A stretch of 64,000 bases of DNA from an uncultured Actinomycetes bacterium (GTDB taxonomy: Bacteria; Actinomycetota; Coriobacteriia; Anaerosomatales; PHET01): contig CAVOYK010000009.1 in NCBI GenBank assembly GCA_963700665.1, positions 52,324 through 116,323 of the forward strand, in the 5' to 3' direction. The notes under the pieces are model-generated. The model worked only from the letters and a program-made list of their open reading frames with translations. It was not told the origin of the DNA and did no database searches. The stretch's first letter is position 1, and each line of letters starts with the position of its first letter. Shown piece after piece: positions 1 to 33,780 of this stretch. A program made the position numbers and the translations under genes.

Positions 1-1827
1 CCCGCCGCCTGGAAGCCCCACAGCACGTTGTTGATCAGGGCGCGCTGCGCATGCTGATTGCCAGACGTGTTGCCTGCTGCAGCCAGCTGCGCCCCCGCGC
101 CGTCGTAGACCTGCAGGACGTCTTGGTTGTCGCCGCCTATCGCGACCGCTATCTCCGCCTTGCCGATACCATCAAGGTCACCCACCGAGGGTCCTCGAGG
201 GAGATGACCGTTGACGAGATACGAGCCGTCGAGCGCGAGGGAGCCGGAGCCTCCTGTGGCCACGACGATGCGGTTGTCGGCGTCAGCGGCGCCCGTGGTG
301 GTGGCCACGATATCGTCGGCGGTGGTCCCCACAACATCACCGGTGGTGATCCCGGTGATTGTGGACGTGGCCGAGACGGCAGCCACCGGGGCGAGCGCGA
401 CACCGTTCCACCGATACACCCTCAGAGTCGAGCCGTCAGCAGCTACGACCTCGTTGAGGTTTCCGATATCGCTGAGAACGTCGCCCACTGCGATGAAGGC
501 GGGCTCGGCCAGAAGCGTGAACGGTCCAGGCCTCGAGGTGACTCCCGCCAGAGCCGAGCGCCGAATGATCGACACGGTCGGCGACCCCGCACGAGTCACG
601 AGGACTTCCGCCTTGCCGTCGCCGTCGATGTCGCCGCTCGTCATCGGACCGATGTCAGCTTCCAGCGCAGGCCGAGGGCCGAGCAGGCTCGTCGACGCGG
701 CGGTCTGCCGCGTGTAGACCTGCGCCAACCCGTACTGCTTGAGGTTCGTCGCGGCCCCATAGGCCCCGACGACCTCGAGAACGGGCGCACCGGCCGTAGC
801 GTAGACGGAGGCCACGTCGGTCGCGATCGTCGAGCCGGTCCCGTGGCAGCCGTAGCACAGCCCGTCGCCGTCAGCCTTCGCGAGCTTGGCGATCGGAGCG
901 CCCGATCCGTCGTCGGCGCCCATCGCAACGTGGCACGTCTGGCATTCGCCGACGAGACGCTCGGCGTCCGGGTCGCCCACCGGCAGCCGTGTGGCCCACT
1001 CGGTGCCCACGGGGACCGTCTGCGATGTCAGCCCGTGAGAAGAGGCCTTGATGGACGAGCCCCCCGGCGTAGGTCGCCTGCGCATTCGCGTGACAGCCGT
1101 AGCACAACCACCGATCGTTTGCGGGCACGGCGGTCGTATCGGTCACCGACGGCGTGGGCGGAGCCAGTTGCGTGACGACGAGTGCCGTATTGCTGGAGCC
1201 GTGCGGCTCGTGGCATATCGAACATGTGATCTTCGTCCCATCCGTGCGAGCCAAGGCGCGCGCATGAGCGGTCTGGTCCCATACCGAGGTGCCCGGGAAC
1301 AGGTTTCCTGGTCGCACCCCGTGACACGCCGAGCAGTACGCGTCCCCTGAGCGGTAGTACGTTCCTGAGGGGTTTCGCGATTCCAGCAGCGCCGGATATG
1401 GGTCACCGTTCGTGTCGCGCTCGGACCCATGACTGTCGTGACACGAGTAGCAGCCCTTGGGTGAGGGTCCGTAGTCCGAGGTGTCCGGGGCGATCAGATG
1501 AGCGGAGTCCGACTGGAATTCCGTGTAGGTGTCGTAGTCAGAGCCGAGTCCGTCGTGACACGAGAAGCACAGCTGCGTGTCACCAGCCGCACCATCGTAC
1601 GTCCCGACGATCAGCGCGTTGACCTCCGCGCCGAGCGTCAACGTGGGATCGGCAGTGATCGTAGACGCAGAGGAGTGGCTTCGGTGGCAGATCGCGCACG
1701 TATCGGTGTCGCGAGTCAACGCAACGTGAGGGGTCACGGCCAGCGCCGGCCGTGCGGATAGAGCCGCTGTCGCGCACAACAGCGCCGCGGTCGAGACGAA
1801 GAGCGTTCTCCGAATCGTCCTCATCAT
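1..1827 (-). pseudogene. Secreted multihaem c-type cytochrome (8 CxxCH) fused to FG-GAP/VCBS-like repeats; 3' end runs off the window; 1 frame change
   Basis: ORF 871..1827 gives signal peptide MMRTIRRTLFVSTAALLCATAALSARPALA and motifs CAICH, CFSCH, CYSCH, CSACH, CSICH, CYGCH. My manual translation of the minus-strand frame from ~1060 to base 1 has no stop, so it is absent from the ORF track. It gives CQTCH and CYGCH, then repeats such as GDIDGDGKAEVLV and GDLDGIGKAEIAV. The frame change falls in the C6 run at 1061-1066. Confidence 0.8.
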
Positions 1828-1930: not shown

Positions 1931-4035
1931 TCACCGCACCGTCACATAACGCCAGCTGGAGTATGTCGGGAGGTGTCCGCCGTCGTCGTGATAGGCACGG
2001 ACACGCCACCTGCCCTTGTAGGGAATCGCGTAGCGTGCCTTGACCCGAGAATACGAGGAGTAGTTGTACGCGCTCGCATACCTGGTCGTGTAGTGACGCC
2101 ACTTGCCCTTGTAGTAGCGCTGGAAGTACATCTTCACGGGCTTGCCGGAGTGGCGTGGCTTCAGGTTGGCGTACCAGCTGTACGTCCGCTTGCGGTATAC
2201 CCTGCTCTTGTGCGGCCACGGCCTGCTCAGATACACCTTGGGATCGACGTAGCGGCTGACGGTCCACACGCCGTCGTAGCCCGTCGCGCCGGCGAAGAGC
2301 AGGCGGTAGTAGGTCTTGGTGTAGTTGTAGCCACTCGAGCTCGCGGGAACGGAGAACCGCACGTAGCCGTTCTCGTCCGTCTCCGCCGAGGTGACGTCGA
2401 TCCACGAGCCCGAGGTGCGCCCGGACAGTCTCTGGAGTATGACGGTCTGACCCTCCAACGGCGTGTCCCCACTCTTGAGAACACCGGAGAACGCAGCTGT
2501 GCGGCCGTAGGAAACCCGCTGGTAGCCGCTGAGGTACGAGAACCACGACGTCGCGTTCGCCACCGAGAAGTTGATCGTCTTCGTGGGTGACCAGTTCCCG
2601 TCTGCGTCCTTGACCTTGAAGGCGATGCTGTAGGGATCTTCGCGTGGTCCGAAGACTAGTTCTTTCGTCGCCGCGTTGACGGTCTGAGGTGCCCCGCCAT
2701 CCAGTCGATACTCGATGGCCGCGATGGGCTGACCGGGTCCACGTATCGGCGATGGTGAGCTGCTTCTCGGAGTGCTGGCCGTAGCCCGAACCCTGACCCA
2801 TCGGGTCCCACGCCTGGACTGCGTACGTGTAGGTGCCCGGCGCTGCGGCATCAGGCATCTCTCGGACGCTGGCTCGCTCCGACTCGCTCGTGAGCTCGGC
2901 CCATGCGCCGGTCCCGGACTTGCGCCACACGCGGTAGCTCATCGGGCGCGTATCGTCAGACGCATCCGTCGGCGAGTTGGGTGGGCGGCCCCACACGAGC
3001 TTCACCTGGCCCGAGTCCGTGCCCGAGAGGTTGACGGTGGCAGTTCCCTCGTAGTTCTCCTGGTAGTCCGCCATGGCAACCGGGATCCCGCTACCAGGAA
3101 CCAGCGACATCGAACCCGCGGGCACCGGGCCGTACTTGTAGCCAGATGACCTTCAGGTCGTCGATCGCAGGTCCTTGGCCGTTCTTGACGCCACCCGCGC
3201 CGGGGGTCATGTCGAAGAACTGGAACCACAGGGTACCCGCCTTGCGCGCGAGCTTGACGGTGTTGCCGTTGGACAGCTCGCGGGTCACGCCTTGCCACGA
3301 GCTCCCCGTGGGGAATCCGTAGACGCTCTCGTTGGTACCCGGGGCGCCCGATGCTTCCCAGTGAAGGCTGAAGATGTCGTTCGTGCCGAGGCTTGGCATC
3401 AGGTAGTAGTAGGAGAGCCACGACCGGTAGTACTCCGACAGCTGTGGCAGCTGGATGGTCGCACTGCCGCGCGTGCCAGAACTCGGCCACTTGTAGTTGA
3501 CGTAGACCGTGGCTCCGTTCGGAATCACCGTGTTCTTGCGAGCGATGGTCGTGTAGCCCTGGGCGTTCACGCGCGACCACGTAGTCCGTGTCCCTCTTGT
3601 ACTTGACGCCACCGACGGCCAGGCTCCAGACCTCTATGCTCGACACCTCGCCGCCGAAGGCCCTTGGAAGGTGAGGGCCGTGGGGTTGGTGCTGGTGAGC
3701 TTGATCGGCTCCCTCGTCTGCTGAACGTAGTCGTAGAAGGCAGGGTAGAGCGGGAAGAACGTCGAGGGGCCGAGCGTCGGGTACTGCTGCGTGCCGGCAC
3801 ACCACAGGCTGTATCCGGACGTGCCTCGACGTACGTTGGTGATCCTGCCCCAGTACGCGCGGGCAGGGCGCTCGCTGGGAATCTCGGCGAGGGCGAATCC
3901 GCCTGCATCCGAGTTGAAGTCCGCCGATACGATCGTCTGCTGCGCGGTGGGTGGATCACCTGCCCACGCGCTCGGAACGAGTGCGAGCAGAAGAGCAAGT
4001 GCGATAGCGACGATCCATGGACTTCTCGGAGGCAT
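1931..4035 (-). pseudogene. Secreted ~700-aa surface protein with FN3-like and Ig-like domains and a Tyr/Arg-rich C-terminus; at least 4 frame changes
   Basis: ATG at 4035 is preceded by AGGAGGG and followed by signal peptide MPPRSPWIVAIALALLLALVPSAWAG. Fragments 3634..4092, a short stretch of the 3002..3805 frame (FGGEVSSIEVWSLAVGGVKYKRDTDYVV), 3091..3612, 1893..3125 (VKLVWGRPPNSP...TYTYAVQAWDP) and 1931..2851 join into one protein. Confidence 0.6.
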
Positions 4036-4048
4036 TGCCGGATCCCTC

Positions 4049-4810
4049 CTACAGGGTGTCCGGGAAGGCCTTGGCAGCCTTCTCGGCTTCATTGCTCAGA
4101 CTCGACGGCTTTCCATCGAGCGTGGTCAGGACTACTTCGAACACGTAGCGTCCGCGCACGTAGACGACTGTCGCAAAGCGCGTGCCGTCAGTGCCGAAGT
4201 ACGCAGTAGAGCCGTCGACCTTGAGCGTCTTGGGGTTCTTGGCGTACAGGCTCTTGCTCACCTTGTTGACGAACGTGAGGGCGTCCTTGTTGCTCTTTCG
4301 GTAGTGAACCGCCCACAGCGCCCGAGATCCGATCAGGTCGGGTCCGTTTGGGGTCCCCGAGACCGTCGCATCGTCATCGACGACGACCTTCTGGCCCAAC
4401 GAGTAGCCTTCTGCTGACGGCGGCAGAAGCACGCCGAGATCGTCAGTTGGCTTGCTGAACGCCGGGTCGTCGGCCTTGGGGGCCGCAGGCTTCGGCTTCT
4501 GGCTGCTCGAGCTGCTTGCGCCGCCCGATGAGGAAGCCGCCGCGTTCGACTGAGTCGTCCGCGCGACCTGCAGAGTCTGCACCGCCTGTTGATTCGTCGG
4601 GTCCGCGGCGACAACCTGTTCGAGCAGGGCGATCGCTGCGGTCGTATCGCCCGACTGCAGTGCCAGCTGAGCACGTCCGTAGAGAAGATCAGCCTCGGTT
4701 GCGGCGTCGGTGGTGGCCGCGAGGTTGGTGTCGGGCGCCTGCGTGGCCTGTGGCTCAGAGAGGGCCGATCCGACAACGATCACACCGGCCAGGATCAGCA
4801 CACCGACCAC
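4049..4810 (-). CDS. Membrane-anchored protein with TPR-like segment, Ser/Ala/Pro linker and C-terminal globular domain
   Basis: 253-aa ORF with TM helix VGVLILAGVIVVGSAL and LYGRAQLALQSGDTTAAIALLEQVVAADP. The in-frame upstream stretch to 4903 encodes a basic tail but has no canonical start codon, so the true start is uncertain. Confidence 0.5.
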   Translation of the reverse strand: MVGVLILAGVIVVGSALSEPQATQAPDTNLAATTDAATEADLLYGRAQLALQSGDTTAAIALLEQVVAADPTNQQAVQTLQVARTTQSNAAASSSGGASSSSSQKPKPAAPKADDPAFSKPTDDLGVLLPPSAEGYSLGQKVVVDDDATVSGTPNGPDLIGSRALWAVHYRKSNKDALTFVNKVSKSLYAKNPKTLKVDGSTAYFGTDGTRFATVVYVRGRYVFEVVLTTLDGKPSSLSNEAEKAAKAFPDTL

Positions 4811-4906
4811 GCCCGCGAGAACGCCCCGCGCCTTCTTGGGAACCCTCTCGACCAGACGCGCGAGGCCTCTTCGAATCTCGGATACTTGTCTGAACTCTCC
4901 TGCTCA

Positions 4907-6264
4907 CTACGCTCCAGTTCCCTCTGTGGCAACGGCTCGTCCCGCCTCCAGGGCGTCGTCGTCCAATGAGGCGGCTCCTCGTGACGCAGCATCCTCGATC
5001 GCCGCGGCAGCCATCGTCACAAAGGAAGTCAGGCTTCCTTGGGCTTCCCTCGCAAGTTCTGCGAGCACGGGGTCTGCCATCGTCATGGGAGGTTGCGAGA
5101 TCGACGCAGCTTCAAGCCACAAGTCGATCATGTCGACTGCTATCTCATCTGGCGCGTCCTGGAAACGCTCCAACCCCGGGAAGTCCCACTTGAGCTGTGT
5201 GCCGGCCGCGAACTGCTCTTCGAGTTCCGGGACTCCGCCCTCGTCAAGCAGGAAGACGAAGACCGCGTCGATCCTGCAGCATCCAGCGCATCTCATTGAG
5301 CGTCACGACGATCGTCTGGCGCAGTTCCGGGGCGATCTGCATCCAGCTCTCGAAGCTGTCGTAGATGATCACCAGCTTGTCGAAGCGGGTGGTGGCCAGG
5401 TTCGCGACAGCCGAGAGGGTCTTTCGCGGAGCCTTGGTCACCTTCCACTCGGTCGACAGCGCAGCAAGCCCGCGATCGCGATAGACGCGCAGGCCGCGCG
5501 CAACCACCTTGGACAGGTGGGTGGAGGTGTACTCGATCAAGATAGTCGACGACCGCCTGCCGCTTGAGGTCTTCTTCCTCTTCGGCCGAGGGAATGGCGG
5601 CGGCCGTCCCCGGGGCGTCGCCGATCGTGACGTCCACCTCGGCAGAGTCCTCCGACTCGTCGGCGTCCTGATCCAAGCCCGCGACGCGGATGTCGGCCAA
5701 CTGCGCCAGCGCGGGCTGTCGCTCGATCTCAGGCGTCCCAAAGTACTCTCGAGTGACCGCGACCGGATCCGCCGCGAACAGGTCTGCGAACTCGGACAGT
5801 CCTTCTGCGCCCAAGACCTGGAAGGCAGCCAGCTGCTCGTCAGGCTCGGCGAGCATCGTCGCGATGTAGGAGGCAAGCGTCTCATCGAAGGAGCGGAAGG
5901 CGACACGCTCCCCAACGGCTCCCAGCGTGGAGCGCACGCGTCCCTTGCGCATCATGTAGAGCTGGATGTAGGCGTGAACCACGTTCAGCGAGTCGTCGCT
6001 GCCGATGGCGTGCTCGACGTTGCCGATAGCGCGCAGCGAGTACGAGGAGGGGACTTCGGCTCTTGGAGACGACGATCGGCTTGGCCTCGATCGGTCGCGG
6101 CGGCCGCGGCGATCGCAGCAAGCAGGCGATTCGAGGCGGCCGCGACTTCGAGAAGGGTTCCCAGTGCCCCAACCTTCCGTTGTAGGAGCTGCGAAGGGAT
6201 TCGCGACCAGCCCCAAAGAGCGGTACCGAGCAATGTCGTGGGAAGCTTCCGAGTCGTTCGTCAC
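4907..6264 (-). pseudogene. Hypothetical ~450-aa acidic cytoplasmic protein, possibly a degenerate P-loop NTPase-like fold; at least 5 frame changes
   Basis: GTG at 6264 follows GAGGAGAG. Stitching frames of ORFs 5293..6417, 5985..6233, 5882..6364, 5244..5915 and 4907..5296 gives MTNDSEASHDIARYRSLGLVANPF..., a Walker-B-like KLVIIYDSFESW and an acidic linker DQDADESEDSAEVD. No intact Walker A is visible. Confidence 0.3.
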
Positions 6265-6377
6265 GGTCTCTCCTCGAATCGTGGTCGAAGTACGTTTCAG
6301 CATAGCGTGATGTGATGGAGAAGCTGTGTACGCGGTGCGTGATGAACCTGTGCGCTCCGTGCACGACAGCCGACGAA

Positions 6378-6406
6378 GGGCCCCGGACCGTTTGGTCCAG
6401 GGCCCC
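6378..6406 (-). terminator. GC-rich hairpin about 50 nt downstream of the hydrogenase-operon cytochrome
   Basis: Plus strand reads GGGCCC-C-GGACC-GTTT-GGTCC-A-GGGCCC: 6+5 bp stem with one mismatch and a 4-nt loop. There is no clear U-tract. Confidence 0.45.
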
Positions 6407-6456
6407 ATCGTCCTCAACAGGTCTCGAAGAGCAGACCCGCAGCGCTCAGATGAACG

Positions 6457-7824
6457 CTACTTGTTGTGGCAACGCTCGCACACGCCGCGCTCGTTGGCAC
6501 GGAGCAGTGCGCTGGTACCGACGATAGCCGGATCGCCAGGGATGCCAGGTGCACCGGACTTGTCCGGGCTCACGCCAGGAACGCCGTCCTGGACAGGAAC
6601 GACCGTGCCGGCCGAGTTCGTGGTCAGGCTAGCTGCAGCCCATCCGCTCATCGACGTGGAGGCACCGTGTGCCCTGTGGCAGGTCAGGCAGCCGATGTAG
6701 TTCTGGTAGAAGAGCGAGGTGTCGCCAGGGGTGTTGCCCTCGTCAAGCTCGAGCGGCACCCAGTCGCCGTCTTCTCTGACCTGCTCCTGCAGAGCACGGC
6801 CAGGACCGAAGCCGGCGGCCAGCGTGACGTCAACCGGGTGACGGTGACGACGCTGAGCACCAACAACGCCGTCCTCCGAGTTCGGAGCACCGGCGCTGCC
6901 GTCGTAGTCATACGTGGCCAAGAGACCACCGTTGGCGGCGGTGTTGCCCGCAGACGTGGCGTAGTTCTCGTGGCACGCAGCACACCAGACCGACATCGAC
7001 TCGGCACCGGTAGCATCCTGGTGCAGGATCTTGGTACCGCCGGTGTAGTCCGGCTTGTAGGCCGCCATCTGAGCAGCGCCGTCCTCGTGCTTCAGCCAAC
7101 CCTTGTTGGCGCCCGCAGGATCCGGGTAGCCGGTCTCGTACGAGAACACGAACGCATCCGGGGTCTCGCCGTCGGCCTCGTAGCCACCGACGGTGTTGCC
7201 GTTGACCTCAGCCTTGAGCAGGCGGTAGTTCGACGTGCCGTGAGGATCGTGGCAGTCGGTGCAGGTCAGGTTCGCCCACGTCGGGCACGGAGGTGCCGGC
7301 GCCCCAGAGGGGACCAGCGGCTTCCATGCTGTGAGCCGACGTGGCAGCGGCGTAGCTGACAGTCGCGCGTGTCTCCCACACGTACGGGTCTGGCATCTGA
7401 GTGAAGCCACCACCGTTGAGCGGAGCGTCGAACGTCGACTCGGACTCGTACTGCGACGACAACGCCGCCGTTGTCCGCCGCCGACGAGCATCGCCGATCA
7501 GCACCCGTGGGGCCGCAGTCGAAGACGCCGGAAACGACGTTGGTCGAAGCGCCAGGAGCGAGGTCGCCGTGACACGCGTTGCAGAACTCGGTCATCGTCG
7601 TCGCGGAACCGACGAGCAACGCGCTCTCGTGCTCGGTGCCGAGCTGGTCGGTCCAGCCGACGAGTCGAGAACGACGTGTGTGCGCGGTGACAACCGGCAC
7701 ACGAATCAGTGTCGTCGACGTAGCCACCGTGAGGGCCGAAGTTCGCGTAGGCCGCCCCGGCGAAGACGAGCGACAGACCGATTGCCAGAACGAGAATGGT
7801 AGAGATTCGCTTCAAGATCTTCAC
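6457..7824 (-). pseudogene. Secreted multihaem c-type cytochrome (at least 6 CxxCH), third gene of the [NiFe]-hydrogenase operon; at least 3 frame changes
   Basis: Signal peptide MKILKRISTILVLAIGLSLVFAGAAYA, then GPHGGYVDDTDSCAGCHRAH. Further motifs are CNACH, CTDCH, CAACH, CLTCH and C-terminal CERCHNK. Fragments are 7498..7824, 7266..7727, 7208..7504 and 6457..7491. The SD AGGAGG lies between the hydrogenase large-subunit stop (7835) and the start. Confidence 0.75.
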
Positions 7825-7834
7825 CTCCTAGTGG

Positions 7835-9793
7835 CTAGTGGACCGCGCAAGCGATGCACGGGTCGAAGGACTGGGCAACACGCAGGGCCTCGACTCCACC
7901 CTGGCCGGAACCGGCGGTCCCGTCCTGCTTGGTGAAGCTGCCCGAGTTTCCGGCGTACGGAACACCGATCATGGCCTGCTCGATCGGGCCACGGTTGCCA
8001 AGGTAGTCCTTGGGCGAGACGTTCCACGTCGTCGGAACGATGCACTGGTACTTGGTGATCTTGCCGTTGACGATCGTGCACTGGTGCATGAGGGCACCAC
8101 GCGGAGCCTCGGTGCCGCCCCAGCCCTGCTTCGTGCCAGTCGGGATCGGCTTGTCTCTTCCACGTATCGCCAGTGGCGTACTTGAGACCACCGATCCAGC
8201 CAGCCGTGTCGTCCGCGCCGAACGCCAGCGTGGCGCCGGACTTGTCGACGGCACCGAGAATCGCCTGAACGAGGACGAGCGACTCGAGTGCGCGAGCGCG
8301 AAGGCGGTCGATGGTGGAGAGACCACCGTTGATGCCGACCACGTGACCGGCAATGGCGCCGCCGATGTAGGAGCCGGCCTCGCCGTAGAGTCCCGAGATC
8401 GTGGCAGCCGAGCCAGGACCGGTGGGACAGTTGGCCTGAGTGACCGGCACTCCGAGGCTCGAGCCCTCGAGCGTCGCCAGACCCGCGCGAATCAGCGCGA
8501 CGGCGATATCGGCAGCGACCATCTTGGGATCGAGACCCGCAAGCTTGGTGTAGTGCGCGTGTAGCCAGGAACCGTTGCCGGCAAGCGGCGTACCGTCGAT
8601 CGGATAGTAGCCGGCGACGACGAGGCGAGCGAACGGACCGACCTCGCGAGCGACGCCGCCCCAGCGCGGGGCCTTGATGTACGTGTAGCCGTTGGCACGA
8701 TTCGGCTCGGTGCGGGAAACGTCACCAGGATAGGCCTGGCAGGTTCGCCATCGTACTCACCGAGGCTGTCGCGCGTAGCGCGAGTTGGTGATGTCCTCTT
8801 GAGGTTCGTCGGGACGCTGTTGGCGCCAGCGACGAAGTTCGCGAGAACGCCGGCCTTGTCGGTGACGACAAAGTCGGTTCCGCCGGCCGGCTCCACCGGT
8901 CCACACGCCACCGGGAAGGGCGAGCGTGTCGTCGGCGGGGTTCGGGAACGCGCCCCACGCGAGGAAGTTGCCCACGCCGGCGCCGTAGCCCAGGCCGCCG
9001 GTGTTGTTGGTGTTGTCGAACGTCGGGTAGAGCACGCCGAGCGCCAGAACGATCGGCACGTACTCCTGGACGACGAAGCGTCCGACCTCTTCCATGATCG
9101 CACGGAACTTGTCGCAGCGTGTCGGCGAGGTCTTGCGGTCTTGTCGACGGTGACGCCGCCACCGATGTAGCACGAGGTCATCGGCATGCGTCCGGCGAAC
9201 AGCGCGCCGGCCTCGAAGGTGAGGCGACGGATGCGCAGCGCCATGACGTAGCTGCGGATGACGGTCGACCAGACGTCGGTCGAGCAGGCCATCGTCGTTG
9301 TCCGGAACGCGCACGGCCGTTGGACAGCAGCGCTGCGGTGTAGTCGGCGGTGGCGAAGTACGGGGTCCACGGCGGAATGGCCGGGCCCTGAACGTAGCTC
9401 GGTGCAGCCAGGTGATAGAAGTGCGTGATGCTCGACATCAGGAACTCGGAGCCCAGCACGAGGTTGCGGATGTAGACCGCCTTGGCCGGCACGCCGTAGG
9501 TCCCGTCGTCGGCGAACGTGATGTGGTTCTGGCTGTAGCCGAGAACCGCGTCAGCGGCGTACGTCGACGTCATGCCGTGAGGAACCGGGCAGACGCCGCA
9601 GATGCGCTGCGTGAACGTGATCGCGTCGTTGACCTCGCGGCCGAGCAGGAAGTTCTCGAAGCCACGCCACAGGTTGCCGTGGACGTCGGCTTCGGTGATG
9701 ATTCCGCCGGCCTCGGTGACCTTGACGCCCAGGTGACCCTCGATACGTGAGATCGGGTCGACTTCGATACGTTGCCTAGCTCGATCTAGCCAT
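7835..9793 (-). pseudogene. [NiFe]-hydrogenase large subunit; at least 7 frame changes
   Basis: ATG at 9793 follows GGAAGGAGGG. Manual translation gives RIEVDPISRIEGHLGV and RICGVCPVPHG (N-terminal Ni-binding motif). The C-terminus is SFDPCIACAVH followed by a stop. Fragments from ORFs 9178..9573, 8492..9370, 8757..9314, 7821..8522 and 7835..8353 lie in all three frames. Confidence 0.85.
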
Positions 9794-9814
9794 TATTCCC
9801 TCCTTCCCAGTTCT

Positions 9815-11159
9815 CTAGCGCGCCACGAACGGCACGAAGCTGTCAGGATAGCCCTTCTCGGTGCACGCCATGCAGGGGTGACCAGCCGCGTGCAGTGACC
9901 GCCGGTCTTCTGACCGTTGGGGGCTAGGTTCGTCGTCGGACCGCCGTAGTTCCAGGCGTCCGGGTTCTCCGGCTGCTGGTTGTTCCAGCCGTGCATGCCA
10001 CACAGCGAGTTCGTCGCGGGGCCCTTGCATCCGATCTTCTGCAGGCAGCCGGGGTCGCCGGGCTTGGCCGCGAAGTCGCCCTTGACGTAGTCGCGATAGC
10101 GCGGGCAGTACGGGCCGTGGATCGGCGTGCCGTAGACCATCTTGAGGCGACGATCGCCGTCGATGGCGTTGGCGTTGAACGACAGGTCCTGGTTGACGAT
10201 GCCCAGAGGACCGTCGGTCGCCGCGAGCGGGCCGTTGACGAGGTCGACGAGGAACAGCACGACCGTGAGGGTGAACCACCACGGGTTGGTCGGGCAACCA
10301 GGAACGTTGACGACCTTGTTGGCGGCGGCCGTGTGGCCGTGCGCAACGAGGTAGTCGTAGGTGCCCATGGCACCGGTCTGCGACTGCAGCGGATCGAAGC
10401 CCGCGGTTGCAGCGCTGATCGGGGGCTTGCAGCCCGGATAGCCGCCGAAGGTGGCGCACTGACCGATCGGGATGACCGCGACGCAGGTCGCCTTGGTCGG
10501 CGAGCGTCGACGACCGTCTCGGCCATGTCGTGCTCGATCGGTGCCGTCGGCAGACATGCCGATGGAGCACCACGGAACGCTCGTGTCGCCGTGTCGCCCC
10601 ACGCGCCGCCACCGGCAGCGTCCTGAAGCGCACCCTCGACGACGAGCACGAACGGCCGTCGCCGGGTTGGGCCGCTGATCCGGGCACGTAGTTCCTGAAG
10701 TCCTCGAGCCACTGGGCCGCGAGGTCGCCGCCCATGCCCATGACGGTCTCGTGGTACTGCAGGTCGATGACGTCGACGACGACGTCGGCGATGTTCATCG
10801 CCGAGCTGTCGCCCTCGACGTTGTAGCCCGGTCGCGTGAAGCGTGAAGTCGCGCGCCACCGAGCTGCGTCGGCAGGATGCCCGCGCAGGCCCGCGGCCGC
10901 ACCTGTCGTGATGTCGGTGCCCTCGACCGCGATGCCGCCGGTGTCCTCGAAGATGCCGAGAAGCGACGTCGAACAGCCAGTGCACTCCGCGCCGTGGATC
11001 CAAACGACCCGCGGCTTGCCGAGCGTGCCGCCGAGATCGGTGCTGCCGGTGCCGAAGGCGAACGCTCTCGACGAGCTTCGAGACTTCGGCCTGGCTCATC
11101 CCGACGGCGGCGGCGAGCGCACCCAGGCGGGTGACGAACTGTCGCCTGGTTATAGCCAT
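9815..11159 (-). pseudogene. [NiFe]-hydrogenase small subunit, Tat-exported, no C-terminal membrane anchor; at least 4 frame changes
   Basis: ATG at 11159 follows GAAGGAGGAG. Twin-arginine leader MAITRRQFVTRLGALAAAVGMSQA. Manual translation gives VVWIHGAECTGCSTSLL. Later fragments give GQCATFGGYPG, NVPGCPTNPWW and GCKGPATNSLC, ending HPCMACTEKGYPDSFVPFVAR. Confidence 0.85.
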
Positions 11160-11456
11160 ACTCTCTCCTCCTTCACATTACTCGTGAACAGTCCTCAAAT
11201 TGCATACGTGCCCGTGACTCCGAGCGTGACGAGTAAGAAAACGCCACCTCCTTTCGATCCACAGCTCAGAGGACCGGATGGAGATGGCGCGTCATCGACG
11301 CTATGAAGGCTGCTGGCGGACCCTTACCCTTGCGACGACTAGACTGCAGCGAGGTATGAGACGTCTCCGACCAGGCGGGTCTTCGTGCCGGCTCCAACCC
11401 GTTGGTCCTTCTCGGAATACCCCTCCTTCTCGGGTAACGGTGCACGTGCGAACGAC

Positions 11457-11508
11457 TTGTAACAGAAGTTACAACTGAGACTCTAAGCCCTGCGACGCCC
11501 TGCGTCAA
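11457..11508 (-). promoter_or_regulatory. Putative sigma70-type promoter (TTGACG-17nt-TAGAGT) followed after 5 nt by palindrome TTGTAAC-N4-GTTACAA
   Basis: Read on the minus strand: -35 at 11508..11503, -10 at 11485..11480, perfect 7-4-7 palindrome at 11474..11457. It lies about 300 nt upstream of the hydrogenase small-subunit ATG in a visibly lower-GC 455-bp gap. Confidence 0.45.
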
Positions 11509-11614
11509 CACCGAATCTCCATCACGAGTCCAACAGTTCTCCGAACGACTTCTCAGCTCCACTCGCGCAATGCGCCCCCGAGGGCTCATGCCGACCCCGG
11601 GGGCGCCGTGACGT

Positions 11615-13137
11615 CTACTCTTCGATCGGACCGTCAGTGGGCTGGTCCGCCTTCTTCGTGAAGCGCTCGATGAACTCGACGCGGTTGACGACGTCGACTT
11701 CGAGCGTCTTGGCCAGACGCCGCAGCTCGGCGTCCTCGGTGGCGAAGACGCGCGAGCGCTGCGCAAGCGACAGGACGATCGCCTGCTCCTCGGTGATCTC
11801 GAGCTTCTCCACGAGCGCCCGGACGTCGGACTCCGAGTACTCCATCTCGGTGAGCAGCTCGCCATGTCGACGTCGTCCTGCGTGATGTCCTTGAGCCGCT
11901 CGTAGTCCTCGGCGGTCACGAACCACTCTGCGGTTGCGAGCAGGCATGAGATGCGCCTCCTCGTTGTCCACCATGATCTGGACGAAGTCCGCGGTGGCGA
12001 AGAACTTCTTCTTGCGCAGCAGCAGCAGCAGCGGCAGGAGCAGCAGCGGCAGCAGGCACCAGCCACCAGTTCTGCGGCAGGCGGGGAATCGGCACCGGGG
12101 AGACCTGGTCCGGCCAGCCCCACACCTGCACGCGCCCGTTGGCCGTGTCGGTGATGAAGATCTTGTTGCGCCCGCCGACGCTGACGCCGTTGGGATAGCT
12201 GAACTCGCCGTCGAGCACGCCCTGCTCGCCGAAGTTCACGAGCTTGTCGCCGTCGGACGACCACATCGTCCCGTCGTGTGCGAGCGTGTCGACCACGACG
12301 AAGCGCGCGGTCTTGGTGGTCTCGTCCGACGGGAACGGCGCCAGGAACGAGATGCCTCTCGGCAGACCCTGGGTCACGATGATGCGATCGAACTCTCCGT
12401 TCTTGTCGAAGACCTGCACGCGACGGTTGTTGCTGTCCGTCACGTAGACCTCGTCCGCGGCTGAACGCGATCCCGTTGGGGAACTGGAAGAGCTCGGGCC
12501 CTGCTCGGCATCGTCGACGATGCCCGAGCGTGCCCACCGACTTCTGGAACTCGCCGTCGGGGTTGAAGATGAGCAGCCGGTGGCCGTTGAGGATCTCGGT
12601 CACGTACATCGTCCCGTCGTCGCCGAACGCGATCGCGACCGGCGCCCACTGGACTCCCGCCGGTCTCGAACGTCGGGCAGCTCGTCCTTGGGCAGCTTGG
12701 GGTCGAACTCGCCGCAGGTACTTGCCCGTCGGGCTGAAGATGTGGATGGTGCGCGCGCGCCGGTCGGACACGTAGAAGTTGCCGTCCTTGGGGTTCTTGG
12801 CGATGTAGAGCGGGACGACCGTCTCAGACGTGCCGAAGCTCCGCAGGTAGTCCCCGTCGGGATTGAAGACGCCGATCGTGTGGCGCGCCGAGTCGACCAC
12901 GTAGACGTTGGCGCCGTCGGCGAGCACGCCGACCGGACGCTGCATCCGCTGATCGGCCGCGCCGCCGTTGAACGAGTAGAGGAACTGCGGCGGCTCGATG
13001 ATGTCGCCGCTGACCGGGGCGATGTCGAACCCGAGCTTCTGCGTGCTCTGGTAGTACCTGTAGTAGAGCGCAAGGAGCAGCAGCAACAGCAGCATCGTCA
13101 CGACTATCACGATCTTGCGCTTCTGTGCCTTGGTCAA
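11615..13137 (-). pseudogene. Membrane protein: N-terminal TM, extracytoplasmic NHL-repeat beta-propeller, second TM, ~130-aa cytoplasmic C-terminal domain; at least 5 frame changes
   Basis: TTG at 13137 follows GGAGG. Sequence begins MTKAQKRKIVIVVTMLLLLLLLALYY. NHL-like blades include VYVVDSARHTIGVFNPDGDYL, FYVSDRRARTIHIFSPTGKYL, MYVTEILNGHRLLIFNPDGEF and IFITDTANGRVQVWGW. The second TM (LLPLLLLPLLLL) is encoded by a (CAG/CTG)n run at 12017-12055, where one frame change occurs. The tail comes from ORF 11615..11974. Confidence 0.65.
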
Positions 13138-13174
13138 CTGAGCCTCCGGTTCGATCAGTCGACGGGCCGACTGG

Positions 13175-14323
13175 CTACTTCGATGCCTTCTTCAGTCGAG
13201 CGACTGTCTTCTTGAGATCCTCGTTGGCGGGGTCTTCCTTGAGTGCCTTCTGGTAGACCGCGAGCGCGTCTCGTGGGTGCTCGGACTCGATCTGAGCGAT
13301 GGCTGCGAGGACGGCAGCGTCCTTCGCATCGATCGCGAGCCCCTTGCGGTAGACCTCGAGTGCGTCCCGGAAGTCCTTGCGCGCCAAGAGCACCTCGCCG
13401 TGGGCCTTGACCGCTTCGACGCTCTTGGGATCGAGATTCGTCGCGATGAGCGCCGCGTCGAGCGCCTCGTCGATCGAGCCGGCTTCGAGCTCGCTGCGCG
13501 ACCGTTCAACCCAGTCGGACGAGGGGCCGAACGCCGCCAGCGCCTCCTGCGGCAGCTCCTCATCGGGAGCGAGGTTCGCGGCCTGGAAGAAATGGTACGA
13601 GGCGTTGACCTTGTCGCCCTTCTGCTCGTAGACCTGCCCGAGCGTGTAGTGCGCCTCGGCGAAGCCCGGATCGAACGCGAGGGCGAACTCGAGATTGGAG
13701 ATCGCCGCGTCGTAGTCTTCCAGACCGCGAAGCGCGCGCGCGAGGTAGCAGGTAGGTGTCCGAGGCGTCCTTCCGGATGCGCAGCGCGCCCTTGAAGTAG
13801 CCGGCCGCCTCCTCGTACTCCTCTTGCTGCAGCGTGATCACGCCCAGGTTGTACAGCGCATTCTCCCGGCGCTCGTCGACCTGCGAGAACTGGGCCGCCT
13901 TCGGTGAGCTCCAGGACCTTCTTGAAGTAGAGCTTGGCCTTGTCGTCCTGATCGTCGAGCATCGCCACCATGCCCAGATCGAGATAGGCCCCGATGTGCT
14001 TGGGGTCGATCTTGAGTGCGGCGTTGAACTGCTCGATCGCCTCGGGGTACTTGCCGGCAGCACCGAGCGCCTCGCCGAGCCTCACGCGCAGGATCACGTC
14101 GTTCGGCGACTTGCGTACCTGCGCCTCGAGGGCCTTGATGACTCGAGTGGGTGCGTTGGTCAGCTCCTGGCGCTGCATGTTCTGCCACACGCGTGTAGCC
14201 GAACCACGCCGGCCAAGCGCAACGACGGCGACCACGAGCGCGACAACGGCCACGTTCAGGCCGGTATCGAGACTCCTGGCGGGGCTCAGCTGGCTGCGGC
14301 ATCTCCTCGTACGCTTCAGTCAT
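13175..14323 (-). pseudogene. Membrane-anchored TPR-repeat protein; at least 4 frame changes
   Basis: ATG at 14323 (MTEAYEEMPQPAEP), TM helix VAVVALVVAVVAL, then repeated TPR units from ORFs 13192..14253, 13560..14063 and 13175..13393 (e.g. AIEQFNAALKIDPKHIGAYLDLG and ALEVYRKGLAIDAKDAAVL). Confidence 0.65.
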
Positions 14324-14406
14324 GCTCTCTGCAACCTCGATTCGTCTCTGGCGCGGAACGACAGAAGCCTGGCCGTGCCAAGCACGAGCACAGAGGTAGA
14401 TGCAAA

Positions 14407-16001
14407 CTAGACTCCAACGTCCGTGTGACAGCGAATACAGAGCGACGCGCCCTTGTAGGGGGCTATCTGCCGGTTGAACGGGTCGAGCGCACCGTGGCAA
14501 TCGTAGCAGAGCCGCAAGTCGTGCCCTTGCTGTGCAGCCGCCTTCTGGGCCGCCTCGACTCTCACCAAAGCTCACGTGACACTCGTAGCACTTGTAGGGC
14601 TTGCCCTTCTCTTTGGCAACGTTGAAGTGAACGGCGTGCTCGGCGATCCCCTTGTGCTGGATCGACGTCGCCGGCTTCTGCTTCGCGATCGGGTGACACG
14701 GCGACGCAGTTCTTCTCGACCAGCTCGGCGTTCTTCACGTTGCCGTGGTGGCAGTCTTGCAGCTCTTGCGGTCACGATGGCAGATGAAGCAGTCGCTCGA
14801 CTCCGACGCCCGGAGGCGGCCTGTGGTCGGCGATGAAGGCCGGCGTGTGCGGGACCACGGTCTGGTGACACCTCTGGCACGACGGGCCCGTGTGGCAGAC
14901 CCCGCACGTCCAGGAGCCCTCAAGGAAGAGCTTGCCGTGCTGGCTCCGCCACTTCGCGTCCTTGTGGTCGGCCGGGAATCACCGGCTTGTCGGGGGCGTA
15001 GGGTCCGCTCCCCTTGCCGTTGTGACAGTCGATGCAGAACTTCTCCCCGTGACACATCGCGCAGTACGCGGGGTCTTTGAGCGCTCTGTTCTTGTGCTTG
15101 CCCTTGGCGAACTTCTTCGTGTGGTTGGCGGGCTTGAGTTCGAACGACTTGGGGTGGCACTTGTCGCAGTCCTCTGTTGCGATCTGGCCGCCTCTCGCGT
15201 GCTGGAGTCCGTGACAGCGGTAGCACGACAGCATGTCGGGCGTCTGCACGCCGTCGGGGTTGTGCGGGAACTCCTGGTGACACGCCTCGCACTGGTAGTT
15301 GCGAACGAGGTGGTCGGCGTGGGCGAAGATCACCGTCCCGGGAGTGATCGCGTCGAGGTCGGGGTGACAGTACACGCACTGCGACATCGAGACCGGGCCG
15401 TCGGGGTAGATCTTGACCGACGGCGTCCTTGGGTCGCGGCTGGAACACCGTGTGGTAGGCGTCGGGCATCTCGGGTACGTCCGGCGCCTCGTCCGCATGA
15501 CACTCGTTGCAGTCGGTCGATGCGTTGTGGCACATCATGCACGAGTTGACTCCCTGCGCGATCGCCGGCCTTGGCATGAGGCTTCTTGGCCCAGTCGTCG
15601 CCGTGGTCCTTGGGACGCAGATCGAATGACTTGGTGTGGCAGTCCTTGCACTCGCTCGTGGCCAGCTCGCCTTGGGGGCCGTGCTCGACTCCGTGGCAGG
15701 CGAAGCACACCTCCATGGGGATGCGCTCGGTCACGCCGTCTCTGTGCGGCAAGCGCGAGTGGCAGCCGTCGCAGCTGACCAGCAGGTGGTTGCCGTGACT
15801 GAACTTCAGCCCGGGCACGTTCACCGATCCAAGATCCAGGTGACACGGTGCGCACTGTGTCGGCTCGACCGGCGCCGCTGTGTCGATCACCGGGTCCTCG
15901 GCGGCGTCTCCCATGGGCGCGGACGCAAGCAGGAAGGCGGCCGCGATAGCAATCGCGACCACCCCCCAGAGCAGTAGCCTTCTGTTGGTCCGGCGCAGCA
16001 A
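14407..16001 (-). pseudogene. Secreted multihaem c-type cytochrome with about 20 CxxCH motifs; at least 6 frame changes
   Basis: TTG at 16001, sequence MLRRTNRRLLLWGVVAIAIAAAFLLASA. Motifs by manual stitching of ORFs 15330..16001, 14735..15577 and 14920..15498 plus other frames: CAPCH, CDGCH, CFACH, CKDCH, CMMCH, CNECH, CVYCH, CEACH, CYRCH, CDKCH, CAMCH, CIDCH, CGVCH, CQRCH, CFICH, CKDCH, CVACH, CYECH, CYDCH, CIRCH. Stop is TAG at 14407. Confidence 0.7.
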
Positions 16002-16032: not shown

Positions 16033-17344
16033 CTAGCCGCCGCCGGTGATTCGCGAAATCAGCTGCAGCAGCGGATTGTCCTGGGTCTTCTGCGCTTTCG
16101 TATGGATGAGCTCAGCAGCAGCCGCGCCAAACTGCTCGTTGGAGCCCTGATGGCATCCTTCTTTGCCGCACGTCTCCCCGACGTTGGCGGGATTGACGCT
16201 CGATTCGGGGTCTTCTTTGGACAGCACTTTGTGTGAGTTGTGGCAGTCCCAGCACGCCGGCGCGTCGGATGCGCCGGACTTGTACGCCCTGCCGTGGTAG
16301 TAGTCGTCGTAGGTGTCGTACTCGTCGCCGTGCTGCTTGCAGCGCGCGCACACGCGATACGAGGACATGTGCATCCGCTGCTTGGCGAGCTCGGTGTCGA
16401 GGCGGTAGATGTAGTGGCCGCCATGGCACGACCCGCACGTCGCCGAGTCGTAGTTGCCATCCTCGAGCGCCGCCGCATGGGTCGACTTGTTGTACGCCGG
16501 CACCACGTCGCTCAGGTTCTTCTCCTTCTGCTCCTCGTGACAGGCGCCGCACGCATCACTGGCGTTGACGGTCCACAGCTGACTCGCCTGCGCCTGGTCG
16601 TCGTAGCGGTAGTCGGGGTGGCACTCCTGACACGTGACGTCGGTGTGCGCCGAGGCGTTCAGGCCAACGACCTCGAACGACCTCATCCCGGTGGCCGAGC
16701 GCTTGTTGAGCGCGTCTCCGTGGCACGCAAGGCACCCGTCACCGGCGTTGTAGTCCCAGCTCGCGGGCGCCCAGACGACACCCTCTTGGTCGTGACACTC
16801 GGTGCACGACTCGGGCTTGTGGCACATCGCGCACCTGGTGTTGAACTCCTTCTCGGCGGGAGCCACGTGCTCCTTGCCTGCCCAGCCGTACGTGTGGAAG
16901 GCGGGACGCAGTCGCTCCTTGGGGGTGACGTGGCAGTCCTCGCATGCGTCAGAGGCGATGATGCCCATCGGCCCGTGCCGTACGCCGTGACAGTCGAAGC
17001 AGCCCTTCATGTCCGGCCGCTCGATCGTCGCGTCCGCTCTGTGAGGGAAGCGCGGGTGACAGGCGCTGCACGACACGAGCTGGTGATAGCCGTGCTGGAA
17101 GATGATCGACGACGAGTAGTTCTTCGTCTGCGCGATGTTGCCATGGCACGTCAGAGTGCACGCGTCCTTGTAGACCGGCGTGTCCTGAAGCGTCTGGAAG
17201 AGCTGCTCGAACGATTGCGGGTCGGCATCGGTGGGTGCCTCGGCGGCCATCGCGACGCTCGCACCGAGAACCGCCGGCGAACGCCAAAGCTGCGAGAGCG
17301 ACCCCGAGCATCCTGCCGAGGCGATGTCGGAACCTGATCGCCAT
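16033..17344 (-). pseudogene. Secreted multihaem c-type cytochrome (10 CxxCH plus CX3CH, CxxCK and CX4CH variants); 1 frame change in the signal peptide
   Basis: ATG at 17344, MAIRFRHRLGRMLGVALAALAFAG. After a 1-nt shift near 17270 it joins AVLGASVAMA-AEAPTD of ORF 16033..17559. Motifs: CTLTCH, CSACH, CFDCH, CEDCH, CAMCH, CTECH, CLACH, CQECH, CGACH, CGSCH, CARCK, CWDCH, CGKEGCH. Confidence 0.75.
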
Positions 17345-17387: not shown

Positions 17388-18307
17388 CTACTGGAACAAC
17401 GCTGCTATGTTCTCCAGCGCCGCCGAAATACCTTGCTTCGCCGAGTCGTAGAGTGCCCACAACGGGTTCTGCTCGAGAGCGTCTTGCTTGCCGTGAATCA
17501 GCTCGGCGTACTCCACGAACTCCTCGTTCACGTCCTGGTGGCAGCCCTCTTGCCCGCACGTCTCAACGAGATTGTCCGGGTGGACGGGCGAGGCCTTGTC
17601 GCTGGCGGGCAGAACCAGATGGGCGCCGTGACAGTCCCAGCAGGCTGGGGCGTCCCACGGAGCGCCCTCCCGATAGGCCGCACCGTGGTAGTAGTCGCTG
17701 TAGGTCTCGGCGCCGTCCGTGTGGCAGTCGCCACAGATCTCGATGCCATCCTTCTGGAACGCCACCTGTGCGGCAGTGTCCTCCTTCGACGGCACTGCGT
17801 GACCTCCGTGGCACCCGCCGCACGTCGGGATCTCGGTAGGCTTCCCCTCGGCCTCTCGCACTGCGGCCTGCTGCTCGGCCGTGACGTTGGGCGGGAGAAC
17901 CGGCGAGTGCGCGACCGCCGTTGATCTCATCCTTCTGCCCGACGTGGTCCTTGCAGCTCTGGCACGACGCTGTTTGCCACCGCCTTCCACGCGTAGCTGT
18001 CCCCCGCGTTCTCGTGCGGAGTCTTGAGCGCGAAGTCGACGTGGCAGCCCGTACACAGAGCCTCAGGGTGAGCCGACGCGTCCAAGACCACCTGGTCAAC
18101 GTAGAGCGACGACGTCGTCTCCGCGCTGGTCTGCTGCAGGCCGGGATCCCCATGGCACACCATGCAGCCGGACTTGCCGGCCGTGGGCAGCGTCCAGTCC
18201 AGGTTGTAGGTCCGGCTCGACTCCTTCGACGAAGCCGCGTACGCCGCACACGGCAGCAAGAGCAAGAACGCCGCAACCAAGACCACTATGGCGTGCCGTG
18301 CTCTCAC
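17388..18307 (-). pseudogene. Secreted multihaem c-type cytochrome, shorter paralogue of 16033..17344; 2 frame changes
   Basis: Signal peptide MRARHAIVVLVAAFLLLLPCAAYA. Motifs CMVCH, CTGCH, CQSCK (in a short frameshift-flanked segment), CGGCH, CGDCH, CWDCH, CGQEGCH. The C-terminal half aligns by eye with the neighbouring paralogue (YYHG.AY..G...APACWDCH). Confidence 0.7.
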
Positions 18308-18324: not shown

Positions 18325-19149
18325 TTATGCGTGTTCTGCCGACGCGTACGAGGGAGCCGGCTCGTGACCGTCTCCGCCGTGCTCGTCTTCGTCAGTGTGT
18401 GCAACTTTCCGGCCGAGACCGCTCATACCGAAGAAATCAAGGAACGCCGGGAAGTCCTCGGTGACCGAGAGGTACACGTGGATCGTGGTCAGGATGATGA
18501 AGAGCCAGTTCACGATGTAGTGGCCGGTCCGAACCCAGAAGATGCCCTCGGCGCCGATGAGTCCGGCGGAAAGCTGGTACAGACTCGCGTTGATGATCGG
18601 CAGCGGCAGACGCCACAGCATCAGACCCGTGATCGCCTGCACTATCAGAAGCGGCACGAACAGCGTGTAGGTGCCCTTCTGCATGACGTTGTACTTGCCG
18701 AGGTGGGGCTTGGAGGGCTTGACGAAGATGTAGTAGAGGATGACTTGGGGCGCGGTCGTGATGTCGCGCTTGGTGATCGCGAACTCCTTGTAGTCACGCT
18801 GCCGAGAGGCGAACGCGTACCACAGGCGCCAGATGAGGTTCACGATCACGATCCACATGAAGATGTAGTGGGCCCAGCGCATCGGAGTCCGGTTGAACTG
18901 GGGGAACCGGATGAGCAGGCCCGTGACGGCGAGCATGATCATGCTGAAGACGTGCATGAAGTGAAGGAACTTGGGCAGGAAGGGAGGATGGCTGTCGTGG
19001 TGAGGCCATTCCCACTGCTTGCCAAAGCGGCGCTTCGCGCGCCCGCTCAGGATATTGCCGATGAAGTGACACGACAACGCGATCAAGATGACCACGTAGA
19101 GCGACGTGAACACCACATCGAGCCAGACATTCAGTTGCGTCAGTCCCAT
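18325..19149 (-). CDS. Integral-membrane b-type cytochrome (Ni/Fe-hydrogenase CybH / FdnI-like family)
   Basis: Intact ORF with ATG at 19149 (MGLTQLNVW...). It has multiple TM helices with His residues (HFIGN, HFMH, HYIFMW, HYIVNW, IHVYL). It is the first gene of the cytochrome operon. Confidence 0.6.
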   Translation of the reverse strand: MGLTQLNVWLDVVFTSLYVVILIALSCHFIGNILSGRAKRRFGKQWEWPHHDSHPPFLPKFLHFMHVFSMIMLAVTGLLIRFPQFNRTPMRWAHYIFMWIVIVNLIWRLWYAFASRQRDYKEFAITKRDITTAPQVILYYIFVKPSKPHLGKYNVMQKGTYTLFVPLLIVQAITGLMLWRLPLPIINASLYQLSAGLIGAEGIFWVRTGHYIVNWLFIILTTIHVYLSVTEDFPAFLDFFGMSGLGRKVAHTDEDEHGGDGHEPAPSYASAEHA

Positions 19150-20586: not shown

Positions 20587-20616
20587 TTTGGCTTGGGGCG
20601 CGCGAGGGGGCGAGAC

Positions 20617-21042: not shown

Positions 21043-21043
21043 C

Positions 21044-23536: not shown

Positions 23537-23554
23537 CGCGACGTGCGGATGCGA

Positions 23555-30391: not shown

Positions 30392-30631
30392 GCGAAGTCT
30401 CCTCGGACGGTCACCGCAGCGCCGCGACGAGTCGGGCGCAGACCTGTATGTGGCGGAAGCGTCTGGAAATCGAATCCAGCCAGGAGGCTCTTCACCCCCC
30501 ACGACGGTTTTGAAGACCGCGGAGCCCACCAGGACCCATCCGCCTCCGTCGGACGATTGTGGAGAGGACGCCGGAGCGTGTCAAACACACCGCACAATTG
30601 GGCAGCTACTGCACGACGAGAGGGGTTCGAA

Positions 30632-33705: not shown

Positions 33706-33780
33706 CTCGGTCAGAGCACGCTGAGGGGAATGTAGTGTCGAGGGCAAAGCTCGTGCGCCCAGCGCCGCAAGGGAGTCGCA

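Follow-up and report, generated by a model that had tools for sequence, protein, structure and literature searches.

The DNA analysed here, called the window, is a stretch of 64,000 nucleotides (nt) from contig CAVOYK010000009.1 of an uncultured Actinomycetes bacterium, with a G+C content of 65%. On its minus strand, positions 11159–6457 hold three consecutive genes: hydS and hydL, which code for the small and the large subunit of a [NiFe] hydrogenase, and the gene for MHC4, a hexahaem c-type cytochrome of the OmcS family. As judged from the sequence, these genes probably form an operon for a hydrogenase that oxidises H2 outside the cytoplasm with MHC4 as the electron acceptor, in a monoderm actinobacterium related to the Coriobacteriia. 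Because HydS has no membrane anchor, the adjacency of HydL and MHC4 is conserved, and a conserved hairpin closes the unit, an extracytoplasmic haem acceptor is the most economical reading of this arrangement. A first-pass annotation of the same DNA had proposed that H2-derived electrons may be delivered directly to an extracytoplasmic haem chain. This idea is partly supported, with the qualification that a hydrogenase-type cytochrome b (CytB) is also present in the cluster.

In the present assembly, all three genes lack an intact open reading frame (ORF). In three-frame translation, the coding signal changes frame every 150–300 nt across hydS-hydL-MHC4. The proteins described below were stitched with a custom frameshift-aware protein-to-DNA aligner against intact homologues. 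Two relatives with intact genes, L001 and L002 (2.5-Mb genome), were fetched; they have the same 13-gene order, which was mapped onto the minus strand of the window by tblastn. The locus survey comprised 82 loci.

A Probably Exported Hydrogenase without an Anchor

The N-terminus of HydS, MAITRRQFVTRLGALAAAVG, contains a twin-arginine motif (TRRQFV leader) and scores 16.6 bits against TIGR01409 (cut-off 16.7), which agrees with the twin-arginine translocation (Tat) leader recognised in the first-pass annotation. The C-terminus, ...HPCMACTEKGYPDSFVPFVAR, lies ~10 residues past the last cluster cysteine, and the homologues end alike. HyaA and HybO from E. coli run 50–60 residues further, anchor helix included. 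Over the last 80 residues, the best 19-residue hydropathy is 0.29 in HydS versus 2.0–2.3 in these two anchored proteins. By this measure the stitched HydS has no hydrophobic C-terminal tail or anchor, and the earlier description of the small subunit as anchor-less holds for the corrected protein, in which no C-terminal transmembrane helix was found. The Cys and His ligands of the three Fe–S clusters align with those of HyaA and HybO. HydS is predicted to carry three [4Fe-4S] clusters, the medial one included, where a fourth Cys (in GGHCT, aligned with FPIQ in HyaA and WPVA in HybO) replaces Pro. This fourth Cys is shared with [NiFeSe] enzymes, and the top NCBIfam match of HydS is a NiFeSe small subunit (131 bits, under the cut-off).

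HydL follows directly, as annotated before, with a gap of 21 nt (TAG 9817–9815 to ATG 9793) instead of the reported 22 nt, and terminates at TAG 7837–7835. It is 73% identical to its homologue P0001 and contains the Ni–Fe ligand motifs RICGVCPVPH and DPCIACAVH, both invariant in alignment A1. The protein ends DPCIACAVH-stop, at the nickel-binding His, with no cleavable C-terminal extension, and DPCxACAxH-stop is the C-terminus of every large subunit in the main clade. The most distant member, L012 (33% large-subunit identity), retains a 22-residue extension, which points to loss of this feature inside the main clade. HydL is thus predicted to need no C-terminal protease. Queries with E. coli HypA–F, HycI, HyaD/E/F, and HybD–G (tblastn) found no hyp or protease gene in the window at E < 0.1, in line with the first-pass statement that maturation genes are missing from it. 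Neither an endopeptidase gene nor hyp genes were found within 10 kb of the hydrogenase in L001–L009, and no HyaD/HybD/HycI-like gene was found within 10 kb. The lack of a nearby endopeptidase gene would be explained by the end of HydL at the Ni-site His. Large subunits without extension also occur elsewhere in the locus survey (L016, L033, L036, L039, L055, and L082), and are known for sensor and group 4 hydrogenases. The large subunit of L001 (P0002; 10001–12754) measures 917 amino acids (aa) and contains an insertion of ~280 aa (residues ~525–811) that is not present in HydL of the window or in other clade members.

A Cytochrome Related to OmcS

MHC4 has a Sec signal peptide that ends in AYA. 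Its likelier start is TTG 7815, with AGGAGG 8 nt upstream, and homologues begin MKRFS; GTG 7824 is the alternative. The first-pass annotation had described a six-haem cytochrome with a signal peptide after the large subunit, and six CxxCH motifs were indeed counted; Pfam matches to cytochrome families agree with this identity. It had also placed this gene about 10 nt past the hydL stop, a distance that fits the GTG codon (10 nt), whereas the likelier TTG lies at 19 nt.

A profile of the MHC4 family (A2, built from 78 members) has only one cytochrome match in the PDB, OmcS from Geobacter sulfurreducens (6EF8/6NEF; E = 1.5e-12), and this match spans residues 9–406 of 407. A partner of the OmcS family makes the earlier analogy to Desulfovibrio cytochrome c3 too loose. 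Comparison of the MHC4 family with OmcS by hhalign returned 98.9% probability and E = 1.3e-17. The OmcS sequence used consisted of the residues in the profile-alignment output, with the first eight residues added. In global as well as local MAFFT alignments, the six CxxCH motifs of OmcS and MHC4 fall into the same columns with similar spacing, and the two proteins share 28% identity over ~350 columns. Five His residues of OmcS (His2, His16, His110, His147, and His335) align with family-invariant residues of MHC4 (H29, H46, H161, H191, and H382). H46, the equivalent of His16, occupies position +3 of the first haem motif; in published filament structures of OmcS, His16 ligates haem 5 of the next subunit. 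On the evidence of these profiles and alignments, MHC4 is a full-length OmcS homologue.

The likeness to the Geobacter protein extends beyond the collinear haem motifs and the conserved non-motif His residues: the first haem motif lies at most ~15 residues from the mature N-terminus, and an NHL-repeat gene is close by. In Geobacter, the NHL-repeat protein GSU2505 adjoins omcS and, according to one proposal, is required for OmcS to be assembled or expressed (PMC9070056). Unlike omcS, the MHC4 gene takes third place in a probable hydrogenase operon; its host is an actinobacterium without an outer membrane, and a structural match to OmcS was not recovered for the MHC4 model. Since paralogues occur away from hydrogenases, the MHC4 family seems to be a general component of which one branch is tied to hydrogenase. 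For example, L087 (4245–11269) encodes the OmcS-like paralogue P0232 with no hydrogenase nearby, beside a 1902-aa BNR/fn3-domain cytochrome in a cell-division/PASTA-kinase region of an actinobacterial contig.

One Conserved Three-Gene Unit

The intergenic gaps of the unit are 21 nt between hydS and hydL and 19 nt between hydL and MHC4 (TTG start). Across the loci, the second gap measures 11–24 nt in each case, with no terminator in between. The first-pass annotation had noted a hairpin after the cytochrome gene, and this feature is confirmed: the 101-nt region around its 13-bp GC stem folds with −61.5 kcal/mol (z = −5.95), and a perfect 13–17-bp GC hairpin of differing sequence stands 45–55 nt past the MHC4 stop in the window and in four relatives (L001, L002, L003, and L008). 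A strict terminator scan, which requires a T-run that this hairpin lacks, gave no site on the minus strand. Upstream of hydS, a 458-nt gap contains a promoter-like TTGACG-17-TAGAGT site.

In all 12 loci (L001–L012), and also in a 13th (L086), an MHC4 homologue follows directly after the large subunit. L001–L011 keep the order TPR-NHL-HydS-HydL-MHC4-unk450, where unk450 stands for a conserved ~450-aa protein. L012, from an actinomycete metagenome-assembled genome (MAG), reads CytB-MHC-MHC-TPR-NHL-HydS-HydL-MHC4, and the order in L086 agrees with this over the extent of that locus. With one genome per GTDB species, the clade occurs in only nine species representatives (L003–L011; 46–61% large-subunit identity), all of them MAGs labelled Coriobacteriia or Actinomycetota. 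In addition, two metagenome hit lists yielded at least 35 contigs on which a large subunit of the clade occurs together with an MHC4 homologue. HydS-HydL-MHC4 is accordingly predicted to be one conserved operon. The assignment of the cytochrome to the same unit as the hydrogenase, made in the first-pass annotation, is borne out by the adjacency in these 13 loci and by the hairpin that closes the three-gene unit.

Class of the Enzyme

The top PDB relatives of HydL are the [NiFeSe] enzymes 1CC1, 4KL8, and 2WPN (~231 bits), followed by representatives of groups 1e (164 bits) and 1b/1d (142–162), Hyd-2 (~130), Huc (99), and group 1h (79). The best NCBIfam models for the two subunits are those of NiFeSe large and small subunits (NF033181, NF045518, and NF045520), and all score far below their cut-offs (320 vs 600, 291 vs 780, and 131 vs 470 bits). 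The nearest outgroups share 30–36% identity and include selenocysteine enzymes of Desulfobacter, Desulfotignum, and Halodesulfovibrio, whose ORFs stop at DP-TGA and have a protease gene adjacent. In a neighbour-joining tree without bootstrap, the window and L001–L009 form one clade with L012 as its sister, inside a 1a-like radiation and away from HyaB, HybC, and the 1i-like branch. From these comparisons, the enzyme appears to represent a separate lineage found only in MAGs, with [NiFeSe]/group 1a enzymes as its nearest relatives.

The periplasmic enzymes of Desulfomicrobium baculatum (1CC1) and Desulfovibrio vulgaris (Hys), which have cytochrome c3 as acceptor, score highest for both subunits in the PDB and NCBIfam comparisons. 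The window enzyme resembles them in the Tat leader, the fourth Cys at the medial cluster, and a soluble c-type cytochrome as (candidate) acceptor. It differs from them in sequence (identity ~30–36%), in a HydL that is ~150 aa longer and has neither extension nor adjacent protease, in a candidate acceptor that is an OmcS-type hexahaem protein encoded in the operon, and in its monoderm host. That the window enzyme might itself be a [NiFeSe] enzyme was considered in view of the selenocysteine machinery in the window and rejected, because the Ni-site codon is Cys (DPCIAC) and not selenocysteine. This machinery is complete and is encoded on the minus strand by a tRNA-Sec gene (30451–30547) and by SelB/SelA/SelD genes (35893–37773, 42259–43392, and 44574–45446); no gene for a selenoprotein was recognised in the window.

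We also compared the enzyme with group 1i, another type of actinobacterial respiratory group 1 hydrogenase. The OPB41 isolates Anaerosoma and Parvivirga were reported to have only group 1i and 3b hydrogenases, and the group 1i locus consists, in this order, of genes for the small subunit, the large subunit, a cytochrome b, and a protease (PMC9686372). The Coriobacteriales/Oscillibacter type of our survey, with HydS-HydL-CytB order and a 20-aa extension, fits this description. Gene order, tree position, the extension that HydL lacks, and an identity of 27–28% exclude the window enzyme from group 1i of OPB41/Anaerosomatales; the Coriobacteriales loci to which this identity refers (L072 and L080) branch apart.

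Hydrogenase genes beside multihaem cytochrome genes are not unique in themselves; the Desulfovibrio hydrogenase–c3 pair is classical. An unrelated arrangement was seen in Phycisphaerae, Planctomycetota, and Desulfobacterales (L037, L047, L060, L061, L032, and L046), where the small-subunit gene is immediately preceded by one for an 8–9-haem cytochrome and a protease gene lies downstream. What is new is the combination of an in-operon OmcS homologue, a distinct lineage known only from MAGs, a large subunit without extension, and an NHL/TPR/multihaem cluster in a monoderm. Within the literature searched, no description of a hydrogenase–OmcS operon was found.

The Surrounding Cluster

Table 1. 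Probable hydrogenase–cytochrome operon and surrounding cluster in the window, in minus-strand order
Feature	Coordinates	Strand	Frameshifts	Remarks
Se/S-carrier-like gene	19566-19333	minus		directly upstream of CytB; same in L001 and L002
CytB	19149..18325	minus		hydrogenase-type b cytochrome; PF01292; intact frame
MHC1	18307..17394	minus		~6 haems (5 CxxCH + 1 CxxxxCH); signal peptide
MHC2	17344..16039	minus		10-12 haems; c7-like units
MHC3	15950..14407	minus	7	20 haems
TPR protein	~14322..13259	minus	4	N-terminal membrane helix
NHL-repeat protein	13137..11615	minus	7	beta-propeller; PF01436 E = 1e-22
Promoter-like site	11480..11508	minus		TTGACG-17-TAGAGT; consensus match only
HydS	11159..9815	minus	9	[NiFe] small subunit; PF01058 + PF14720
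HydL	9793..7835	minus	11 + in-frame TAG at codon 6	[NiFe] large subunit, ~643 aa; PF00374 E = 1e-72
MHC4	6457..7815	minus	3	OmcS-family hexahaem c-type cytochrome; six CxxCH; profile match to OmcS
GC-rich hairpin	~6412..6372	minus		probable terminator without U-tract; 13-bp stem
unk450	6264..4913	minus	5	conserved ~450-aa protein; directly past hairpin in all loci
Conserved ~270-aa protein	4867..4052	minus		N-terminal helix; weak TPR match
Large surface protein	4038..1970	minus		homologues with CW_binding_2 (cell-wall-binding) domains
MHC5	1746..3	minus		at least 8 haems; FG-GAP repeats

The three genes lie within a conserved same-strand cluster of ~20 kb (Table 1), in which four cytochromes together carry at least 42 haem motifs. 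The cluster is headed, 7 kb upstream of the operon, by CytB. This protein scores 69.5 bits against PF01292 (gathering cut-off 30.1) and has as its top NCBIfam match TIGR02125, "Ni/Fe-hydrogenase b-type cytochrome subunit", with 77.9 bits, under the equivalog cut-off of 121.5; its match to formate dehydrogenase gamma is far lower (34.6 bits). CytB is 72% identical to its L002 homologue. A tblastn search with E. coli HyaC did not detect the gene, and Pfam and NCBIfam did. CytB and MHC1–3 are found upstream in 7 of the 12 loci. These findings do not support the first-pass view that the hydrogenase is paired with a multihaem cytochrome rather than with a b-type cytochrome. As in the cytochrome-b-anchored hydrogenases (E. 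coli HyaABC and Wolinella HydABC), the cluster encodes a cytochrome b of the PF01292/TIGR02125 type, and H2 would be oxidised outside the membrane. Unlike in these systems, CytB is encoded 7 kb upstream in what appears to be another unit and is followed by three multihaem cytochromes, HydS has no docking helix, and HyaB and HybC are far off in the tree.

NHL and TPR proteins precede the operon in every locus. In the window, the NHL protein contains two hydrophobic helices, and its C-terminal tail is ~115 aa long. In L005, L006, and L011, another OmcS-like paralogue takes the place of CytB and MHC1–3. The N-terminus of MHC5 (PH..DTDTCAICHRSH) is similar to the N-terminal unit of OmcS-like proteins; its L001 counterpart measures 1173 aa, and the protein is probably located at the cell surface. 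Gram-positive extracellular electron transfer (EET) clusters, such as those of Dethiobacter, Thermincola, and Carboxydothermus, likewise combine multihaem cytochromes with NHL and TPR proteins, which are thought to span the cell wall; the description consulted does not mention a hydrogenase (PMC10376724).

Several neighbouring features may be recorded as well. The protein unk450 has no Pfam or NCBIfam match; by eye it resembles a degenerate P-loop NTPase without Walker A but with a Walker-B-like motif, VIIYDSFE. Beside the cluster, genes for a Fur-family regulator, CbiM, CbiQ, and an ABC ATPase (20614–23699, plus strand) form an ECF-type Ni/Co uptake system, which could supply nickel. Farther away, the plus strand encodes two NapC/NirT-type membrane cytochromes with 10 CxxCH (30668–31519) and 22 CxxCH (31680–33702); the latter contains a long run of near-identical SWAFRHPS..C.SCH.RPSGH units, and a two-component system comes next (33745–35842).

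Frameshifts in the Assembly

The frameshifts in the operon and in most of its neighbours (Table 1) consist chiefly of one extra base, and checking of the sites found no homopolymer context. They belong to indels that run through the entire window (1–64000): a codon-usage Viterbi path makes ~70 frame jumps, unevenly distributed, with many at 4000–16000 and few at 36000–45000. We considered whether these shifts are real and the operon consists of decaying pseudogenes. The 23 frameshifts over three genes, outside homopolymers, and the in-frame TAG at HydL codon 6 would be expected from decay. However, this TAG is the only internal stop, the identity to intact relatives between the shifts is 73–88%, and the neighbouring genes are affected likewise. 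Furthermore, fragmentation of the same kind is seen in two loci from long-read MAGs (L010 and L011), whereas the loci from short-read MAGs are intact. For the MHC4 fragment of the window (P0137), the recorded contig is 251,064 bp long, in keeping with assembly from long reads. Because of the high identity between shifts and the contrast between long-read and short-read loci, we consider the shifts most likely to be long-read indel or assembly errors, and we give almost no credence to decay.

At the 5' end of HydL (9776–9793, minus strand), the window reads ATG GCT AGA TCG AGC TAG GCA ACG TAT, with ~15 extra nt relative to L001 (ATGGCTACATACGAA). This site may be a local mis-assembly that involves a repeated GCTAG.

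Proposed Electron Flow and Alternatives

The following mechanism is the most probable one on this inventory. The HydS–HydL dimer would be exported in folded form via Tat and would oxidise H2 outside the membrane. Electrons would leave the distal cluster of HydS to the OmcS-like MHC4, which would take the place of the cytochrome b docking of anchored enzymes. From MHC4, an inward exit could lead through MHC1–3 and CytB to menaquinone; no other route would separate charge across the membrane and conserve energy. An outward exit could reach external acceptors by way of the 12- and 20-haem proteins, MHC5, and the wall-binding protein. In line with the proposal for GSU2505 and OmcS, the NHL and TPR proteins would probably serve as a scaffold for the cytochrome or in its assembly. 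As a more tentative extension, possible but not favoured, MHC4 might, aided by the NHL and TPR proteins, polymerise like OmcS into a nanowire. The hydrogenase, matured without proteolysis, might dock onto this filament and load it with electrons from H2.

Several observations weigh against H2 oxidation with MHC4 as acceptor. Which way the electrons flow cannot be read from the sequence, this assembly has frameshifts in the genes, and the clade consists of MAGs throughout. A single-sequence phmmer search of the PDB with MHC4 returned one spurious weak match and not OmcS. The AlphaFold model of MHC4, made without haems, is of moderate quality (pLDDT 65.5, pTM 0.69, weakest at the N-terminal haem-1 region), and Foldseek found no match for it in the PDB; the link to OmcS came only through the family profile. 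CytB appears to belong to a transcription unit separate from hydSL-MHC4, because promoter-like sites precede both CytB and HydS and a weaker hairpin follows NHL. Moreover, CytB was not detected within 10 kb upstream in L005, L006, and L011, which means that the link to quinone is not universal.

This last absence would suit the version put forward in the first-pass annotation, in which a soluble Desulfovibrio-style hydrogenase has a c-type cytochrome as its sole partner and no b-type cytochrome is involved. The anchor-less HydS and the conserved adjacent cytochrome gene agree with that version too. We nevertheless consider it unlikely: in the window and in 7 of 12 loci, the cluster starts with a hydrogenase-type cytochrome b, the partner is OmcS-like and not c3-like, and transfer of electrons from H2 to an external acceptor without a membrane step yields no charge separation. 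In a further reading, MHC4 is a mere neighbour, part of a surrounding EET cluster into which the hydrogenase was inserted without functional link. OmcS-like paralogues away from hydrogenases (L087) point in this direction, as do NHL/TPR/multihaem clusters of Firmicutes, described without mention of a hydrogenase (PMC10376724). Such a chance association is highly improbable in view of the 11–24-nt gap between HydL and MHC4 in every locus, of a conserved hairpin that follows MHC4 while none of the loci has a terminator ahead of it, and of a gene order that is held down to 33% large-subunit identity (L012).

The direction of flow poses a different question. Electrons might be drawn from a mineral, Fe(0), a cathode, a partner cell, or, via CytB, from menaquinol, and H2 would then be released outside the membrane. 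The nearest relatives of the enzyme are [NiFeSe] hydrogenases, which are good H2 producers, and the large haem wires and surface proteins of the cluster are equally suited to electron uptake. On the other hand, group 1 hydrogenases are typically uptake enzymes, and the Ni/Co transporter next door and the respiratory layout are compatible with both directions. We regard H2 production as rather improbable and retain H2 oxidation with MHC4 as acceptor as the preferred reading.

Implications

If this reading is correct, the operon would join uptake hydrogenases and OmcS-type wires, two well-studied systems with no known genetic connection. H2 could then feed extracellular acceptors or the quinone pool directly, without the usual membrane anchor. 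The finding would extend OmcS-type proteins to monoderm Actinobacteria and set apart a lineage within group 1 in which the large subunit matures without an endopeptidase. With its compact set of three genes, the module would lend itself to expression for tests of electron transfer from enzyme to wire. For the widespread uncultured Coriobacteriia-like bacteria of the subsurface and of sediments, it would provide a concrete hypothesis as to how they use H2.

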